A DNA stretch of 24,000 nt, taken from positions 45,652 to 69,651 of the forward strand of contig NZ_JALKBX010000002.1 of assembly GCF_023227745.1 (NCBI RefSeq), read 5' to 3'. A program made the position numbers and the translations under genes. Below are positions 2,942 through 22,190 of this stretch, piece by piece (positions within the stretch are counted from its first letter, which is position 1; every line of letters starts with the position of its first letter). The DNA comes from Natroniella acetigena (GTDB taxonomy: Bacteria > Bacillota > Halanaerobiia > Halobacteroidales > Halobacteroidaceae). The notes under the pieces were generated by a model that was not told the DNA's origin, ran no database searches, and saw only the letters and a program-made list of their open reading frames with translations.

Positions 2942-3247
2942 TCAGATCTTAATATCAATATATGAGCCTCGTTTTGTATTGCTTGCCTGTTCATTTTTTT
3001 CCTCTTCTTCTTTACTTTCTTGCTCCTGATTCTGTTGTTCAGTCTCTTCTTGATCATTAATCTGTTTATGCTCAGTCTCCTCAGATTTATTAACTCGATT
3101 TTCTTTTTTGAGATTTTCTTTCTTTAGGTCTTGGGCTAACTGATGATGATCTAGATCAGGCTTATTTTGCCGTTCTTGTTCTATTCGATTAATTCTTAAA
3201 GAACGAGGAAGAGTTGTCTTAGGTGTAATTGGTTCAGTCATTTTCAA
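2942..3247 (-). CDS. Hypothetical highly charged, low-complexity protein
   Basis: 101-aa ORF rich in E/K/Q/N, with no TM segment. Tightly packed (11 nt after the upstream stop) with a GGTGGTG RBS. No recognisable domain by eye. Confidence 0.45.
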   Translation of the reverse strand: MKMTEPITPKTTLPRSLRINRIEQERQNKPDLDHHQLAQDLKKENLKKENRVNKSEETEHKQINDQEETEQQNQEQESKEEEEKNEQASNTKRGSYIDIKI

Positions 3248-5876: not shown

Positions 5877-6260
5877 TTACTCATCCTCTTTCATATTTCG
5901 AATTATTTCTGCTGCTTTTTGAGAGTCTTCTTCTATTTCATTTATTATATTTGGATCATCTTGACTGAGATCATTAAATTCAAGTGGGGTCATTTCTGAT
6001 TTTTCTTCAGCTTGCTCACTCTCTTTATCTACTGCTATTTCAGCTTCAGCTCCTGCTAATTCTTGTGATTCAATAATAGTTAAATTATTAGTTATCAACT
6101 GACCTATAATTGCTCCAATTAAACTAAAAATCACTCCTCCAACCATTGACCTTTTGAATGCTGTTAACCAGCTTAAATTAGCAATTAAAGCTACCGCTAA
6201 AACTACAATAATAGCTATTACTAAAAATAACAAAGCTAATTTTTTAGCTAACCAGCTCAA
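5877..6260 (-). CDS. Hypothetical two-TM membrane protein with an acidic C-terminal tail
   Basis: 127-aa ORF with two hydrophobic segments (LALLFLVIAIIVVLAVALIANL and GGVIFSLIGAIIGQLI), then an E/D-rich tail. RBS GGAGAG. Packed between cheD and fliA. Confidence 0.5.
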   Translation of the reverse strand: MSWLAKKLALLFLVIAIIVVLAVALIANLSWLTAFKRSMVGGVIFSLIGAIIGQLITNNLTIIESQELAGAEAEIAVDKESEQAEEKSEMTPLEFNDLSQDDPNIINEIEEDSQKAAEIIRNMKEDE

Positions 6261-6276: not shown

Positions 6277-6771
6277 TTATAAAACTATATCATCATGTTT
6301 TACCGTCTTAATTAATACTTTTCCAGTTAAATTATGTAATTCCATAGTTCTTCCATAATTTCCGCCTACTTCAGCTCCCAAAATAGGTATCCTCTTCTCC
6401 TGCAAAATTCGCTCAACAGCCTCTATATTTCTAGCTCCTATCCTCATTTTATCATTTGAACTAGAAAAATTAAACATTTGAGCCCCACCAGCCATTTTAG
6501 CTTCTAACCGATTGAGATTAACTTTCTTTTTCCTTAATTTATCTAATAAGGTATCTAAAGCAGTATCTGCATATTTGGCAGAATTTCCTTGGTTACGATT
6601 AGTAGGAAACTCAGGCAACATTACATGTGCCATACCCCCAATTTTAGTTGCTTTATTATACAAAGTTACCCCTACACAGGAACCTAAGCCAGAAGTAATA
6701 ATAATATCGTCTTCACTCCCAACTTTAAGATCTGCCATTCTTACTCTAATTTTACCCTTCACTGGCAACAC
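6277..6771 (-). CDS. cheD: Chemoreceptor glutamine deamidase / CheC activator CheD
   Basis: 164-aa ORF with the CheD hallmarks ITSGLGSCVGVTLYN and GMAHVMLP. The longest ORF starts at a GTG overlapping cheC by 20 nt, so the exact start is uncertain (internal ATG at 6738). Confidence 0.9.
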   Translation of the reverse strand: MLPVKGKIRVRMADLKVGSEDDIIITSGLGSCVGVTLYNKATKIGGMAHVMLPEFPTNRNQGNSAKYADTALDTLLDKLRKKKVNLNRLEAKMAGGAQMFNFSSSNDKMRIGARNIEAVERILQEKRIPILGAEVGGNYGRTMELHNLTGKVLIKTVKHDDIVL

Positions 6772-7387
6772 CCAACTTTTCTAGTATAAATTGCAAAGAT
6801 TCTGGTTCAGGTATTAAAAAAAAGTTTCCTTTAACCTCCTGTTCCATATCACTTAAAAACTCCGTTTCAATTACCAAAGCATAATCCCCTATTTGACCTA
6901 ATTCTATAAAGCAGACCTCTAAAATAGCTCCTGCCATATCAAATTCTAAAGAAGGAACTGAGGGACTAACTGTTATCCCTAACATCTGAGAAAAAGCATT
7001 CAAATTTGCTCCAGTTAAGATATTAGAAATCTCTTTTAAAGCAGAGGATTCAAATTCTCCTAGCTCATCTTCAATATCTGTTTTTTGACCAACAAGCAAC
7101 TGAATCAATAAATTAGCACTATCTGGTAGCAAGGTAAATAAGACTCCTCCATTAATATCTCCTTCAGTTCTAACTAACATTGCTACTATTAATTCTTCTT
7201 CATTGCCAATGATACCAGGCAGATCTGCGATTGGAATTAAATTAACATTAGGAACTGTCATTTTAATCTTACTATTTAGCATATCAGATAATGAAGTAGC
7301 AGCATTCCCTGCTCCAATACTAGCTACCTCTTTTAAAGCATCTAATTGCAATGGCCCTAACTGAGACAAACCATCATTATTAAGCAT
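6752..7387 (-). CDS. cheC: CheY-P phosphatase CheC
   Basis: 211-aa ORF with the duplicated CheC-type motif (LDALKEVASIGAGNAATSLSDML and SALKEISNILTGANLNAFSQML). GAGGTG RBS. Followed by cheD, as in Bacillus. Confidence 0.88.
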   Translation of the reverse strand: MLNNDGLSQLGPLQLDALKEVASIGAGNAATSLSDMLNSKIKMTVPNVNLIPIADLPGIIGNEEELIVAMLVRTEGDINGGVLFTLLPDSANLLIQLLVGQKTDIEDELGEFESSALKEISNILTGANLNAFSQMLGITVSPSVPSLEFDMAGAILEVCFIELGQIGDYALVIETEFLSDMEQEVKGNFFLIPEPESLQFILEKLGVASEG

Positions 7388-8160: not shown

Positions 8161-9069
8161 CTAAAAGTTTAATAGCTTATTAAAAAAACCTTTAATCCCT
8201 TTAGACTCTTTTTCTTTCACCTCTTTATCTAATAATTTAGCAACTATTTGATTGGTGCTTTTTACTACTTGGGCTTTAGGAAATTCTAAAAAAAATGGTC
8301 TTCTCCTTCTAACTGCTTTAGTTACTGCTTTATCAGTAGGTAAAACCCCCAATAAATTTATTTCAAGCTTTAAAAAATCATGAGCAGTTTTAACTAATCT
8401 ATCTGCCACCTTATTTCCTTCCTTACTATTCTCTGCTTGATTAACTACTAATCTAATAGTGGCTCCTTGATCATGTTTAGCAATTACCTTTATTACTCCA
8501 TAGGCATCAGTAATCGATGTAGGTTCTGGAGTAGAGATGATAATTACTTCATCCGCTGCTAAAACAAATTTAATAACATTGTTTGTTAAACCAGCACCTG
8601 TATCGATTAGAATAATATCGAACTTTTGATCTATTTTATTCCAACAATTGATTAAATTATTAATCTGATACGAAGATAGATTAGCTAATTCTTCTAATCC
8701 AGATCCCCCCGGAATTAAAGCTAAACCATCAGGACCATCTACAATTATCTCTCCTAACTCCTTTTCCCCTCCGATAACATGGCTTAAATTGTAGGTAGGA
8801 CTGACACCCAAAATAACATCTAGATTGGCCATTCCTAGATCAGCATCAATAACCATCACTTTTTTTCCTTCTTGTTGCAATCCTAAAGCTAAATTAGCAG
8901 TGAAATTTGATTTACCTACGCCACCCTTACCACTTGTTACAGCATAGACATAAGCTGAACCCTCTTTTTTTATTCCGTTATCTTTTGTTAATTTTTCCTT
9001 GTTTTTCCCTTCAGGCTTCTCTTTCATACTCTGGACTAAATTTCTCAACTTTTCTGCTTGATCTGTCAT
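8161..9069 (-). CDS. flhG: MinD/ParA-type ATPase FlhG (YlxH), regulator of flagellar number and placement
   Basis: 302-aa ORF. N-terminal DQAEKLR (the DQAxxLR FlhF-activating motif), deviant Walker A SGKGGVGKS, and a C-terminal amphipathic helix GIKGFFNKLLNF. Its ATG overlaps the flhF stop (ATGA). Confidence 0.92.
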   Translation of the reverse strand: MTDQAEKLRNLVQSMKEKPEGKNKEKLTKDNGIKKEGSAYVYAVTSGKGGVGKSNFTANLALGLQQEGKKVMVIDADLGMANLDVILGVSPTYNLSHVIGGEKELGEIIVDGPDGLALIPGGSGLEELANLSSYQINNLINCWNKIDQKFDIILIDTGAGLTNNVIKFVLAADEVIIISTPEPTSITDAYGVIKVIAKHDQGATIRLVVNQAENSKEGNKVADRLVKTAHDFLKLEINLLGVLPTDKAVTKAVRRRRPFFLEFPKAQVVKSTNQIVAKLLDKEVKEKESKGIKGFFNKLLNF

Positions 9070-15479: not shown

Positions 15480-16643
15480 TTATAATTTCTTCAATCGCTC
15501 TTCAGCACTGACAATATCTGTAACCCTGAACCCAAAGTTCTCATCAATCACAACTACCTCACCTTTAGCAATCAATTTTCCATTAACCAATAGATCAACT
15601 GCTTCCCCTGCTAACCTATCTAACTCAATCACAGAACCAGGACCTAAATCAAGAATTTCTTTAATCGACATTCTGGTCTTACCTAATCTAACAGTCAATT
15701 CCAATGGTACATCATAAATCAAGCTAATATCATTATTTAAATCACTAGCCAATTGTCCTCCTAATTGCTCAAACTCAACACCTTCGACTTCAACATCTGG
15801 CTGAGGACTCATTGCTGAAGGTTGCTGAGGTTGGCCCTGTTGGGGCTGACTTCTCATTTGGGTTTGAGGTTGCTGTTGTTGGGAATTAACCTGAGTTTGT
15901 TGCTGTTGGGATTGTTGTGGTTGAACTTCTTCAACTTCTGGCTCTTCCTCTTGATTATCACCCATTAAGCCCTCTACTAGCTGTTTAGCAAAAGCCATAG
16001 TCATTATCTGTATGATTTGACTATCTATCAAATCTCCAATATGCATATTAAATGCTACCTGAACAATATCATCATCCCCTGAAATACCTTCCAAATCAAC
16101 ATGATCGCTACTTAATTCCAATAGTTCAGCATTTGGAGGAGAGATATTAATCTTATTACCCTCAAAAAAGTCTGACATCGATGTAGCAGCAGACCCCATC
16201 ATCTGATTCATTGCTTCACCTACAGCACTGATATGTAACTCACTCAATTCACTTGGAGGCTCCGTTCCATCTCCGCCCATCATTAAGTCAGCAATAATAG
16301 CAGCATCTTCTGTTTCAACGATTAATTGATTACTTCCTTGCAATCCTTCTACATATTGGACATCAACTAAAATACACGGTCTAACATAACCCTCCACCAA
16401 TCGATTAATTGTACTTAATGATACTTCTGGAGCTGTAATTTCTACTTTTTGATCTAATAGTCCATATAAAGCTGTAGCAGCAGACCCCATCGAGATATTA
16501 GCAACTTCCCCAATTGCATCCTTTTCTAACGGACTTAATAGCTCTTTGCTTTCATCTATTTGATCTCCTGGTACATCATTTATATTATTTTCTTCTAATA
16601 AAGCACTAATTTCATCTTGAGATAACATTTCATCACTCATCAT
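15480..16643 (-). CDS. fliY: Flagellar switch protein FliY (CheC-like phosphatase domains fused to a FliN/SpoA C-terminus)
   Basis: N-terminal CheY-docking motif MSDEMLSQDEISALL and CheC-like repeats (DAIGEVANISMGSAATAL and SAVGEAMNQMMGSAATSM). A Gln/Pro-rich linker precedes the C-terminal FliN block (LELTVRLGKTRMSIKEILDLGPGSVIELD...GKLIAKGEVVVIDENFGFRV). The start is placed at the ATG ATG preceded by GGGAGGAGG. The longest ORF reaches 16670 but lies inside the fliM 3' end. Confidence 0.9.
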   Translation of the reverse strand: MMSDEMLSQDEISALLEENNINDVPGDQIDESKELLSPLEKDAIGEVANISMGSAATALYGLLDQKVEITAPEVSLSTINRLVEGYVRPCILVDVQYVEGLQGSNQLIVETEDAAIIADLMMGGDGTEPPSELSELHISAVGEAMNQMMGSAATSMSDFFEGNKINISPPNAELLELSSDHVDLEGISGDDDIVQVAFNMHIGDLIDSQIIQIMTMAFAKQLVEGLMGDNQEEEPEVEEVQPQQSQQQQTQVNSQQQQPQTQMRSQPQQGQPQQPSAMSPQPDVEVEGVEFEQLGGQLASDLNNDISLIYDVPLELTVRLGKTRMSIKEILDLGPGSVIELDRLAGEAVDLLVNGKLIAKGEVVVIDENFGFRVTDIVSAEERLKKL

Positions 16644-17643
16644 CTTCCTCCTCCCACTCATCTTGATCATCTATTGTCGAAATAATTTCAACAGCTAAAT
16701 TACTACCCTTTCTACCTGGCTTAGCTTCAAATTTTCTACGTTTGCTAACATGCACCTTCAAATTATCTTCTACTTTAGTATCTAATTTAATAACATCCCC
16801 TTGATTTAATTCCAACAACTGACCAACAGTAATACTTGCTCTTCCTAGTTCAGCTATTACTGGTAATTTAGCTTTTCCTAATCTCTTCTTTAGTTTTTCT
16901 AGCGTTTCAGTAGTAGAACCTTTCCTTGATGTTGAAAACCAATATTGAGCACTCAACTTAGAGACAATTGGTTCTAACACTATGTAAGGAATACAAATAT
17001 TAATTAAGCCTTCAACTTCCCCAATTACTGTTTCTATAGTAGCTAAAATCACCATGTCATTACTGGGAACAATTTGAGTAAATTGTGGATTAGATTCCAA
17101 CTCCTTAAGGCGTGGTCTCAAATCAACCACATTTTCCCATGCTTCACTAAAATTATTTAAGATCCGTTTATTGATCTTCTTTAATACTACTTCTTCAATA
17201 TCAGTAAATTCTCTACTCCTGTCTAAAGAACCACCTTCTCCCCCAAAGAGCCTCTCAACAATAGTATATGCTATCTTAGGATTCATCTCAATAATAAACT
17301 CTCCATGAAGAGGATAAAAATCACAAACCGACATGATTGTAGGTTGTGGTAAAGAACGAATAAATTCATCATAAGATAACTGCTCAATCGATGTCAATTC
17401 AGACTTAACCATAGTCCTTAATTGCGTAGAGATTGAAGTAGTTAACAACCGACAAAAACCTTCATAAATCATCCTTAAAGTTCTTAGCTGATCTTTAGAC
17501 AATTTGTTGGGATGTTTAAAATCATAAACCTCTATTACCTCTTCTGCTTCTTGTTTTAATTCATCTGCTTCTACTTTTCCAGATGATACAGCGTCCAATA
17601 ACGAATCAATTTCATTTTGGGATAAAACTCTATTTGATGACAT
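16633..17643 (-). CDS. fliM: Flagellar switch protein FliM
   Basis: 336-aa ORF. N-terminal CheY-P binding motif VLSQNEIDSLL, a central FliM domain, and a C-terminal SpoA-like segment (LPVIAELGRASITVGQLLELNQGDVIKLD). Confidence 0.96.
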   Translation of the reverse strand: MSSNRVLSQNEIDSLLDAVSSGKVEADELKQEAEEVIEVYDFKHPNKLSKDQLRTLRMIYEGFCRLLTTSISTQLRTMVKSELTSIEQLSYDEFIRSLPQPTIMSVCDFYPLHGEFIIEMNPKIAYTIVERLFGGEGGSLDRSREFTDIEEVVLKKINKRILNNFSEAWENVVDLRPRLKELESNPQFTQIVPSNDMVILATIETVIGEVEGLINICIPYIVLEPIVSKLSAQYWFSTSRKGSTTETLEKLKKRLGKAKLPVIAELGRASITVGQLLELNQGDVIKLDTKVEDNLKVHVSKRRKFEAKPGRKGSNLAVEIISTIDDQDEWEEEDDE

Positions 17644-17710
17644 GAATCTACCCCCTACTTAATTAAAAAACAGAATTAACAATCACTAAAATCTATAGTT
17701 GAAATCATTA

Positions 17711-17776
17711 TCATTCTTCTGTCTTAGCTTTGATCAACTCGTCTATCTCCTCTTGAGATAGAACCTCATCAGACAT
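17711..17776 (-). CDS. Candidate 21-aa micro-protein consisting of a CheY-P docking motif (MSDEVLSQEEIDELIKAKTEE)
   Basis: ATG at 17776-17774 and TGA at 17713-17711. AGGAGG lies 7 nt upstream of the ATG, overlapping the end of fliL. The peptide matches the LSQxEIDxL N-terminal motif of FliM and FliY. It is too short for the supplied ORF track and was found by translating the fliL-fliM gap. Confidence 0.45.
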   Translation of the reverse strand: MSDEVLSQEEIDELIKAKTEE

Positions 17777-17789
17777 CCTTATCCCTCCT

Positions 17790-18239
17790 TTATTGAATTA
17801 CAAATTCGGTAAAGAAGACATTAGTCACTGTTCCTTCTAACAATTTTTCATTTGTTTTTTCCATAATCTCACTTCTCAATTCCATAGCTCCTTGTTCAGA
17901 ACTTATTTCTTCTTGTTCTTTACTTCTTAAGATAGAGATAATTGTATCTCTAATTTGTGGTCTCCGTCTATCTATTTCTTCGGCAACATCTGCATCATCA
18001 ACCTCAACAGTAATATTTAACCTAATAAACCTTCTTCCCCCAGCAAGATTAACTAAAAACTCACCTATCTCAGTAATTGGCCCTAATTCTCGAGCTGTAG
18101 TACTTACTTCACTCTCTTCACTCTGATCAATCCCAGCTAAATTAACCATCATAAAATAAGAGATTCCAGTAGCCAATACTACTGCGATCAATATTCCTAC
18201 AATCAGACTATAATTCAAACCACTTTTCTCTTCGCTCAT
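17790..18239 (-). CDS. fliL: Flagellar basal-body-associated protein FliL
   Basis: 149-aa ORF with a single N-terminal TM and a FliL-type C-domain (FLVNLAGGRRFIRLNITVEVDD......RPQIRDTIISILRSK). Lies between motB and fliM. Confidence 0.9.
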   Translation of the reverse strand: MSEEKSGLNYSLIVGILIAVVLATGISYFMMVNLAGIDQSEESEVSTTARELGPITEIGEFLVNLAGGRRFIRLNITVEVDDADVAEEIDRRRPQIRDTIISILRSKEQEEISSEQGAMELRSEIMEKTNEKLLEGTVTNVFFTEFVIQ

Positions 18240-19969: not shown

Positions 19970-20093
19970 TATCACCCCTTACTTATGTAATAATCCCTTT
20001 GCTAAAAATTCAGTCTTGCTATAACAGCCTTTAGCAGATATCTAAATCTTTCTGCACTTTATTTTTATTGACAATTAACGTATGTTTTTGTAG

Positions 20094-20115
20094 GGGCGAC
20101 TCCCCGTAGTCGCCC
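20094..20115 (-). other. GC-rich 8-bp hairpin downstream of flgE
   Basis: GGGCGACT (20094-20101) pairs with AGTCGCCC (20108-20115) around a 6-nt loop. On the sense (minus) strand an A-rich tract follows, not a U tract, so it is not a canonical intrinsic terminator. Confidence 0.6.
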
Positions 20116-20135
20116 TGGGTTTAATCTAATTTTAC

Positions 20136-20157
20136 GGGCAGACACGGGGACCTGCCA
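20136..20157 (-). repeat. Hairpin motif copy 2 (GGGCAG-ACACGGGGAC-CTGCCA), about 40 nt downstream of the flgE stop
   Basis: GGCAG/CTGCC stem with a 10-nt loop. 15 of 22 positions are identical to the copy at 21903-21924, in the same orientation, with compensatory stem substitutions. Confidence 0.55.
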
Positions 20158-20196
20158 CTACTTAAACCTTAAACTCAAACTATATTTTAACTCTTA

Positions 20197-21687: not shown

Positions 21688-21717
21688 CTCTAAAACCCCT
21701 CCGTTTTATTAATTAAT

Positions 21718-21745
21718 AATTGATAATTTACAATTGATAATTAAA
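21718..21745 (-). repeat. AT-rich repeat: two copies of AATTGATAATT (14-nt offset), 45-58 nt upstream of the flgE ATG
   Basis: AATTGATAATT occurs at 21718-21728 and 21732-21742. The 14-mer AATTGATAATTAAA (21732-21745) recurs exactly at 22613-22626. Confidence 0.5.
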
Positions 21746-21902
21746 CACTTTCAACATAATTTTTTTACTGACACTTAATTACACTATAATTACAATTCCA
21801 TCTATAATTTATCAAGATTCAACTTGATTTATCGCGTATAACTATCAACCGTAAAATTACTTTTATCATCTGTCGTGTATCAATCAACCAGTCTGACAGC
21901 CT

Positions 21903-21924
21903 GGGTCGACACAGAGACCGACCC
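21903..21924 (-). repeat. Hairpin motif copy 1 (GGGTCG-ACACAGAGAC-CGACCC) in the spacer upstream of flgE
   Basis: 6-bp stem with a 10-nt loop. Related to 20136-20157, with an 8/10 identical loop and two covarying stem pairs. Confidence 0.55.
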
Positions 21925-21982
21925 TTACATTTTTCTTGGTAAATCAACACACAGATTGGCCTACTAGTCTGAATCTGCCTTT

Positions 21983-22006
21983 AAATTCAACCTTGCTTTT
22001 GAATTT
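21983..22006 (-). other. Perfect 8-bp AT-rich inverted repeat
   Basis: AAATTCAA (21983-21990) pairs with TTGAATTT (21999-22006) around an 8-nt loop. No flanking U tract on the sense strand. Confidence 0.4.
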
Positions 22007-22052
22007 GAGCTCTTACTACCACAGACACAGACTACTGACACAGACACATATC

Positions 22053-22087
22053 TCACTAATCACTCGTCACTCATAACTTATCACTAA
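22053..22087 (-). repeat. Imperfect 7-nt tandem repeat, 5 units (plus-strand TCACTAA TCACTCG TCACTCA TAACTTA TCACTAA)
   Basis: Read directly from the sequence. TCACT recurs at 22053, 22060, 22067 and 22081 with strict 7-nt phasing. Confidence 0.7.
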
Positions 22088-22190
22088 ATCCAGCCACCTC
22101 TGTCGGTTAGCGGCCAATAGCCTCCCTGAGAGCATCCAAATAATAAATTCCAATTAAACTTATTATTTTCCTACTCTTTAGCGGGTCCAG

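Follow-up and report, generated by a model that had tools for sequence, protein, structure and literature searches.

No docking site in bacterial chemotaxis is better characterised than the EIDAL helix of the flagellar switch proteins FliM and FliY, and for decades CheY has been studied with synthetic versions of this helix. In Escherichia coli chemotaxis, the C-terminal peptide of CheZ and the P2 domain of CheA, likewise short, bind to CheY on an overlapping surface and compete with the N-terminal peptide of FliM (FliM-N), while in the alpha-proteobacteria extra CheY proteins serve as a 'phosphate sink', or buffer, that drains phosphoryl groups through additional receivers. FliM-N sits in the alpha4/alpha5 groove of CheY as the high-affinity tether of a two-step binding; for the free peptide and activated CheY, the dissociation constant (Kd) is ~27 uM (PMC9126983). 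The stretch of DNA analysed here (24,000 nucleotides (nt), hereafter the window) comes from Natroniella acetigena, an anaerobe of soda lakes that belongs to the Halobacteroidaceae (Halanaerobiales), and holds this motif as a gene of its own: a 21-codon, ATG-started open reading frame (ORF) called by an ORF finder on the minus strand at 17711-17776, within the gap between fliL and fliM, with the product MSDEVLSQEEIDELIKAKTEE. The docking motif is a known one, present here as an independent, free-standing gene.

The closest described relative is FliM-N itself, available as the Thermotoga maritima peptide of PDB entry 4IGA (chain B) and as FliM-N16 with E. coli CheY-BeF3 (1F4V). FliM-N shares the LSQxEIDxL motif with the micro-protein, and peptides used in crystallography share its length (20-21 amino acids, aa); the product of the micro-gene is in effect the reagent synthesised by structural biologists. 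The motif of FliM forms the tethering end of a switch protein of 330 aa, whereas the micro-gene is separate and stops after 21-25 codons, its product closing with an acidic tail. The CheZ peptide and CheA P2 differ further, since both belong to larger, catalytically active enzymes, are unrelated in sequence and are not free. The micro-protein would have the same outcome as phosphate-sink systems, in that the amount of phosphorylated CheY (CheY-P) reaching the motor is tuned, but they employ extra receivers where the micro-protein would mask the output face of CheY-P by mimicking a motif.

A free-standing docking-motif gene between fliL and fliM

The coordinates, strand and 21-aa length of the ORF, proposed in an initial annotation together with an AGGAGG Shine-Dalgarno (SD) sequence 7 nt before the ATG, were confirmed on the sequence. 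Read along the minus strand (window 17400-18000), fliL closes with GTA ATT CAA TAA and is followed by AGGAGG GATAAGG and the ATG of the micro-gene, whose codons run ATG TCT GAT GAG GTT CTA TCT CAA GAG GAG ATA GAC GAG TTG ATC AAA GCT AAG ACA GAA GAA TGA TAA; the spacer behind it ends in …AAGTAGGGGGTAGATTC, after which fliM opens with ATG TCA TCA AAT AGA GTT TTA TCC CAA AAT GAA ATT GAT. The fliL-fliM gap of 146 nt is, as first noted, unusual for this operon: among 26 measured junctions, 19 overlap or span no more than 16 nt, and the other gaps of at least 75 nt (75, 221 and 503 nt) all lie around flgE. This gap contains no terminator and no same-strand promoter match. Six-frame translation of the window returns three matches of the LSQxEIDxL type, in FliM, FliY and the micro-ORF, which bears out the earlier count of three docking motifs in the operon; the window has no others, and the occurrence in the fliL-fliM gap is not attributable to chance.

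The micro-protein (MSDEVLSQEEIDELI) carries the consensus LSQxEIDxL(L) a few residues (4-6) after its initiator Met. Its best match among all PDB chains is 4IGA_B, a FliM peptide of Thermotoga that has 20 residues and was crystallised with CheY (E 0.071; S-DVLSQEEINQLIEAL against SDEVLSQEEIDELIKAK); 12 of the 16 aligned residues are identical, the 'LI' ending included. The mini-peptides also align at profile positions 1-22 of the NCBIfam models for FliM (TIGR01397) and FliY (NF005995), with E values of 0.01-0.09, and the reading frame ends after 21-25 codons with no CheC-like middle or SPOA domain downstream. On sequence grounds, the micro-protein is a member of the FliM-N/FliY-N motif class. 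Within each genome the three motif groups are distinct, reading VLSQEEID[EKA]L[IV] in the mini-peptide, VLSQ[NS]EID[SL]LL in FliM and [MVS]LSQ[DE]EI[SN][AS]LL in FliY, and the micro-peptides form an orthologous group of their own, separate from FliM-N and FliY-N in those genomes (Glu after Gln; Ile or Val for the second Leu). The label 'CheY-P docking peptide' attached to the ORF at the outset follows from this homology and is best read as putative, the motif being also a documented FlhG-binding element.

Conservation and selection on the encoded peptide

A FliM scan with one genome per species gave 79 related loci, and contigs for more distant FliL/FliM relatives were fetched from a large protein collection. 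Orthologous micro-ORFs lie in the fliL-fliM gap of Natroniella sp. ANB-PHB2, with a GTG start (…SDEVLSQEEIDELIKAKAEEE), and of N. sulfidigena (MSDEVLSQEEIDELIKAKTEEE); the micro-ORF is absent from 77 of the 79 loci of the FliM scan. Four further copies belong to uncultured lineages, at loci L080 (MSGVLSQEEIDKLIADMKDGEEDED), L082 (MANEVLSQEEIDELVKQLTDDD), L210 (MSDVLSQEEIDALVDEMKDEEDDED) and L211 (MSNEVLSQEEIDALVEQMKNED), whose FliL proteins are 55-62% identical to that of Natroniella and likewise to one another. The micro-ORF is thus found in seven genomes (the window, L001, L002, L080, L082, L210 and L211) from five deep lineages of one Halobacteroidaceae clade, each time in the same gap. A first metagenome scan with FliL, for which the search patterns fitted the window sequence alone, returned no copy.

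Across these seven genomes, which underlie all the figures for start, SD and motif core, the micro-protein is 21-25 codons long. The start codon is kept in every copy (six ATG, one GTG), as is an SD just 3' of the fliL stop (GGAGG, GAGGTGAT or GGGGTGA, 5-10 nt upstream of the start). Where the initial annotation had named absence, frameshift or loss of the start or SD in close relatives as grounds for rejecting the gene, six further genomes carry it intact. The V, L, S, Q, E, E, I and D and the second L of the core VLSQEEIDxL are invariant in all seven, and the nine codons that specify them contain nine variable nucleotide columns, all synonymous: eight fall on the third codon position, none on the second and one on the first, a CTA/TTA change for Leu. 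The Ile codon ATA does not vary among the seven copies. For the three Natroniella species, the ratio of nonsynonymous to synonymous divergence (dN/dS; Nei-Gojobori) of the micro-ORF is 0-0.14 at a dS of 0.29-0.97, compared with 0.03-0.13 at a dS of 0.5-1.05 for fliL and fliM. The tail behind the motif diverges yet remains short and acidic, leaving the peptide with a net charge of -6 to -12, and the spacer 3' of the micro-ORF is alignable only near the fliM SD. The micro-ORF is a genuine conserved gene under purifying selection at the protein level, and the near-exclusively synonymous change among its copies upholds the earlier proposal that the peptide itself is selected. It is presumed to be translated.

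In a bootstrapped FliM tree, a clade with 100% support unites the ORF-positive Natroniella, L211 and L210 with the ORF-negative Orenia, Halonatronum and L209, and L211 is sister to this ORF-negative group with 93% support. Because the tree places an ORF-positive lineage there, the micro-gene is older than the split of these genera and has disappeared at least once, from the Orenia/Halonatronum group. The ORF-negative gaps left after loss in Orenia and Halonatronum are AT-rich, ORF-free and 68-122 nt long, which is the appearance of neutral decay at the fliL-fliM site. Those of Orenia measure 115-122 nt (L004 3883-4003, L208 1379-1501 and L206/L207 2441-2564). A weak alignment of the gap of O. 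metallireducens and L208 to the micro-ORF ('TGATGAGATTATA…') is suggestive at most in such AT-rich DNA and was not used as evidence. The gap of the same two also holds a small ORF, MMIYEGLNIIIFNSLME, whose MIYEG resembles the RMIYEGF of FliM and which may be a decayed remnant or a chance likeness.

Origin of the reading frame and non-peptide explanations

At the DNA level the micro-ORF is 58-71% identical to the 5' ends of fliY and fliM, which is the same as the identity of fliY to fliM. Because this distance equals that between two ancient paralogues, the micro-ORF itself appears to be ancient relative to the fliY and fliM 5' ends. A recent duplication scar, ruled out by these identities, had already been doubted in the initial annotation, whose listing of codon differences from fliY is correct and whose N-termini of FliM (MSSNRVLSQNEIDSLL) and FliY ((M)MSDEMLSQDEISALL) match the translations of the window. 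An alignment of the fliL 3' end plus mini-ORF with the spacer plus fliM 5' end, as tandem duplication would have produced, is likewise not significant, with shuffled sequences scoring as high in 79 of 1000 and 110 of 500 trials. The ORF might still be a non-functional, undecayed leftover of an older partial duplication of the fliM or fliY 5' end, for which one could cite its absence from several related genera and, in N. sulfidigena, the identity of its first eight residues with those of FliY (MSDEVLSQ). Such a relic is highly improbable given that all seven copies are intact beside a spacer that can no longer be aligned across lineages, that dS is near saturation while dN is ~0 and dN/dS far below 1, that start codon and SD are retained throughout with none of the seven disrupted, and that at the sites of loss the gap turned AT-rich and ORF-free, i.e. 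the pattern of neutral decay.

A split or frameshifted fliM, or a readthrough fusion to it, was also ruled out: from the stop of the micro-ORF to the ATG of fliM there are 27-67 nt in the seven genomes, with frame offsets of 0, 1 or 2, and such variation, together with the tandem stops of the window copy, makes a fusion impossible. The remaining non-peptide explanation is that of an upstream ORF or leader, the translation of which would control translation of fliM or stability of the mRNA in cis with a functionless peptide. The position immediately upstream of fliM on the same transcript suits this explanation, with neither terminator nor same-strand promoter match between the two, and so does the predicted fold, which pairs the SD region of the mini-ORF with the 5' coding region of fliM. 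The Natroniella copies further contain a perfect 8-bp hairpin (UCUAUCUC-AAGAG-GAGAUAGA, window 17740-17760 on the minus strand). All three Natroniella species share the stem unchanged, but it is broken in L080, L210 and L211 and is not conserved beyond Natroniella and L082; it is probably a by-product of the codons for S-Q-E-E-I-D. An RNA element in place of a peptide was rejected because the peptide is kept where the hairpin is broken and the fold is not significant (z = -1.84), and no Rfam family matches the fliL-fliM gap or any other part of the window. The initial annotation had offered regulation of fliM by an upstream ORF among its options, and this is now disfavoured: the amino acids are conserved through synonymous change, the spacer length and the frame relation vary, fliM has a strong SD of its own in every genome, and relatives with gaps of 6-46 nt express fliM without any such ORF. 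Cis-regulation of this kind is very unlikely, if marginally less so than a relic, and both readings are poorly supported.

CheY-P and FlhG as candidate partners

The function proposed for the micro-protein, to which about an even chance can be given, is that of a translated 21-25-codon product, co-transcribed with fliL, fliM and fliY, that acts in trans by filling the docking groove of CheY-P and thereby buffers CheY-P. The whole product would be a free copy of the N-terminal EIDAL helix by which FliM and FliY dock, with a short and strongly acidic tail behind it, and would be translated from the fliL-fliM-fliY transcript. Lacking both the FliM middle domain and an SPOA domain, it cannot join the C-ring. 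It would instead fill the alpha4/alpha5 groove of CheY-P, which is the normal dock of FliM-N and FliY-N, and compete for CheY-P against both the switch and the FliY phosphatase. As a soluble competitor or buffer it would alter the amount of CheY-P that arrives at FliM and at the FliY phosphatase, and the level of CheY-P required for motor switching would be buffered or raised. The operon encodes FliY, CheC and CheD, so that CheY-P turnover is part of the system, and the presence of cheC and cheD in the same operon indicates that a CheY-based pathway is in use. Because the closest structural relative is a CheY-bound FliM peptide, and because of this CheC/CheD/FliY context, CheY-P is ranked as the first partner and FlhG as the second; both the binding to CheY-P and the direction of its physiological effect are inferred.

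Several points weigh against CheY-P buffering. The chief weakness is affinity, as a Kd in the tens of uM would require the peptide to accumulate far above the levels of the switch proteins. The EIDAL motif has a second documented partner in FlhG, and cheY is located outside the window. The string LSQEEIDKL occurs also in DnaK and in unrelated proteins, and thus the motif alone is no proof of function. Finally, Orenia, Halonatronum and Halanaerobacter live without the micro-gene, which is therefore dispensable.

A function directed at FlhG, bearing on flagellar number or C-ring assembly, is a serious rival, although with perhaps one chance in four it is the less probable of the two, and one that the initial annotation had not considered for an EIDAL peptide. 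Here the micro-protein would bind the FliY/FliM-docking surface of FlhG and not CheY, and would titrate FlhG or stimulate its ATPase, tuning C-ring assembly and the number or placement of flagella. The EIDAL motif has been reported as necessary and sufficient for FlhG binding, and FlhG ATPase activity is raised in vitro by addition of FliM according to the literature. PMC12327844 describes robust binding of FlhG by FliY-N36 alone, the first 36 residues of FliY, dependent on FlhG residues K177, R207 and F215. FliY-N36 (Schuhmacher et al. 2015, as cited there) resembles the micro-protein in being a short N-terminal EIDAL segment, and needs no other part of FliY to bind its partner; it was taken from a larger protein for experiments, whereas the micro-protein is naturally encoded as a stand-alone product. 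The flhG gene of the same operon, aligned to the Geobacillus FlhG structure 4RZ2, retains all three binding residues (K194, R224 and F232) along with the activator motif DQAxxLR, and the peptide net charge of -6 to -12 would suit a surface that contains Lys and Arg. A protein with nine docking motifs fused to FliL (P0166, described below) is moreover encoded right after flhF-flhG-fliA. Set against these points, the closest solved relative of the micro-peptide is bound to CheY, and conservation of the FlhG binding residues is expected regardless, since FliY-N is present. The switch protein used by FlhG differs between species, and the EIDAL variants accepted vary likewise (FliY but not FliM in Bacillus subtilis; PMC12826062), which renders this partner unpredictable from sequence.

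Operon context

The minus strand of the window forms one long flagellar and chemotaxis operon comprising fliK, flgD, flgE, flbD, motA, motB, fliL, fliM, fliY, fliO, fliP, fliQ, fliR, flhB, flhA, flhF, flhG, a gene for a PilZ protein, cheC, cheD, sigD and fapA (Table 1). A Pfam scan of the window ORFs returned no receiver domain, in line with the earlier statement that the operon has no cheY. Two small ORFs of the operon have no Pfam match at E <= 0.001, namely one of 127 aa between cheD and sigD (5877-6260, minus strand) and one of 101 aa after fapA (2942-3247, minus strand). Long gaps flank flgE, one of 503 nt upstream (window 21688-22190) and one of 221 nt downstream (19976-20196); no small ORF in either is convincing, and Rfam matches neither.

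Table 1. Features of the micro-gene locus and its operon (window coordinates), with free-standing micro-genes of other loci in the last row
Feature	Position	Strand	Description
Micro-gene coding sequence	17711..17776	-	21 codons + TGA stop, encodes MSDEVLSQEEIDELIKAKTEE; net charge -6
Docking-motif core VLSQEEIDELI	17732..17764	-	codons 5-15 of micro-gene
SD AGGAGG of micro-gene	17784..17789	-	adjoins fliL stop; 7 nt to ATG
Second in-frame stop TAA	17708..17710	-	immediately 3' of micro-gene TGA
Non-coding spacer, micro-gene to fliM	17644..17707	-	64 nt; carries fliM SD AGGGGG at 17651-17656
fliL (upstream gene)	17790..18239	-	149 aa; 100% identical to N. acetigena FliL; Pfam PF03748; stop TAA 17790-17792
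fliM (downstream gene)	16633..17643	-	Pfam PF02154 + PF01052; docking motif VLSQNEIDSLL at 17596-17628
fliY	15480..16643	-	CheC-like phosphatase domains + FliN C-terminal domain (Pfam); docking motif MLSQDEISALL at 16596-16628
flhG (MinD-like ATPase)	8161..9069	-	keeps K194, R224, F232 + N-terminal DQAxxLR motif
cheC	6752-7387	-	CheY-P phosphatase-pathway gene, same operon
cheD	6277-6771	-	CheY-P phosphatase-pathway gene, same operon
Free-standing micro-genes	L110 (3875-3847 region), L137 (8884-8980), L111, L187, L127, L135, L189

Other proteins built from the docking motif

When metagenomes were scanned for LSQEEID[EK]L[IV], a degenerate form of the motif that misses the 'A' variants of L210 and L211, most hits were DnaK and unrelated proteins (L086-L205), LSQEEID(K/E)L(I/V) lying within the conserved DnaK segment GLSQEEIDKLVKDAELHAEDD. 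Because the string recurs in DnaK and other unrelated families, searches by motif alone need filters on ORF length and context. Free-standing micro-genes of 28-32 aa were nonetheless observed, with products such as MAEVSNSSTMLSQEEIDKLIKKLEEEKENNA, MAEVSN(G/S)STMLSQEEIDKLIKKLEEEKENNA and MADTNDMTLLSQEEIDKLIKKMEEEKNS. They have a GGAGG-type ribosome-binding site and a GC hairpin with a T-run right after the stop, and none lies in a flagellar operon; at L137 a CheY-like single receiver (…DFIVKPF…) is encoded ~1.7 kb upstream. In public collections these free-standing micro-proteins occur on 12-114 contigs each, labelled 'hypothetical' or 'FliM'. Those of the Butyrivibrio type are 30-32 aa long (P0148-P0151), one being SFU59632.1, a 'hypothetical protein' of Butyrivibrio sp. 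M55. In common with the Natroniella micro-gene, they possess a single LSQEEIDKLI-like motif, a Lys/Glu-rich tail (…LSQEEIDKLIKKLEEEKENNA against …LSQEEIDELIKAKTEEE) and a ribosome-binding site of their own, but they differ in having their own terminators, a place outside flagellar operons and a leader of 9-11 residues before the motif. Motif and tail are alike and the context different, in sequences too short for significant homology scores.

An exhaustive HMMER scan seeded with one free-standing micro-protein led to multi-motif proteins. Proteins of 107-130 aa (~125) carry four motifs in tandem (P0163, P0164, P0167, P0172 and P0178; loci L091 397-771 and L167 927-1301), one example reading VLSQKEIDALI / VLTQSEIDKLI / VLSQKEIDSLV / VLSQAEIDKLI. 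Some derive from Lachnospiraceae, one of these from a metagenome-assembled genome (MAG); one is labelled 'FliM' by its source, and the neighbours at L167 and L091 are non-flagellar. No Pfam family matches the four-motif proteins at its cutoff. Other, long proteins from the same scan string together 9-11 motifs by Pro-rich or acidic linkers. P0166 (L212 4714-6411) has nine (L/I)(S/T)Q(D/E)(D/E)IDxL(L/F) motifs, then a hydrophobic segment and then a FliL domain (Pfam 29.5 bits, cutoff 24.6), and its gene immediately follows flhF-flhG-fliA and precedes DUF6115/DUF2802 and FliK-like genes. That extra docking motifs are naturally fused to FliL here is of note, since in Natroniella the micro-gene comes straight after fliL. 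P0162 (541 aa) combines ~11 motif copies with a hydrophobic segment, and P0161 (741 aa) contains many copies of LSQ(D/N)ELDKLL. P0165 was rejected as a false positive bearing an unrelated VLSQNEVGK repeat domain.

In a Turneriella MAG (L055 ~5030), a 21-aa ORF (…DFLSQKEVSSLFRKSSLIYYG*) at the expected start of fliN/fliY may reflect an assembly frameshift or a truncated docking segment, and in a JGI contig (L083 746-934) a normal FliM N-terminus (MPSDEVLSQSEIDSLLEALSSGEVEAD) runs into an unrelated Gly/Arg/Lys-rich sequence, suggestive of chimeric assembly or of an insertion. Single-motif, four-motif and 9-11-motif proteins, the FliL fusion included, could tentatively be viewed as a broad, unrecognised class of docking-motif-only proteins forming a regulatory layer that buffers, sequesters or locally concentrates CheY-P or FlhG and sets switching sensitivity or flagellar number, a generalisation that is at present rather doubtful.

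Implications

The exact micro-peptides are absent from a collection of 15 billion proteins, and hence no pipeline has called them; neither Pfam nor NCBIfam has a model dedicated to them, and no description of a stand-alone EIDAL or docking-peptide gene was found in the literature, all of which agrees with the initial suggestion that no annotated family exists. None of the seven copies is annotated, which shows that gene finders overlook functional genes below ~30 codons. If the proposed function is true, some bacteria tune the contact between CheY-P and the motor, or the FlhG-driven assembly of the C-ring, by means of a micro-protein that mimics the docking motif. This would be a layer of control missing from current models of chemotaxis, with related motif-only proteins, including the nine-motif FliL fusion, catalogued so far just as hypothetical proteins or mislabelled 'FliM'.

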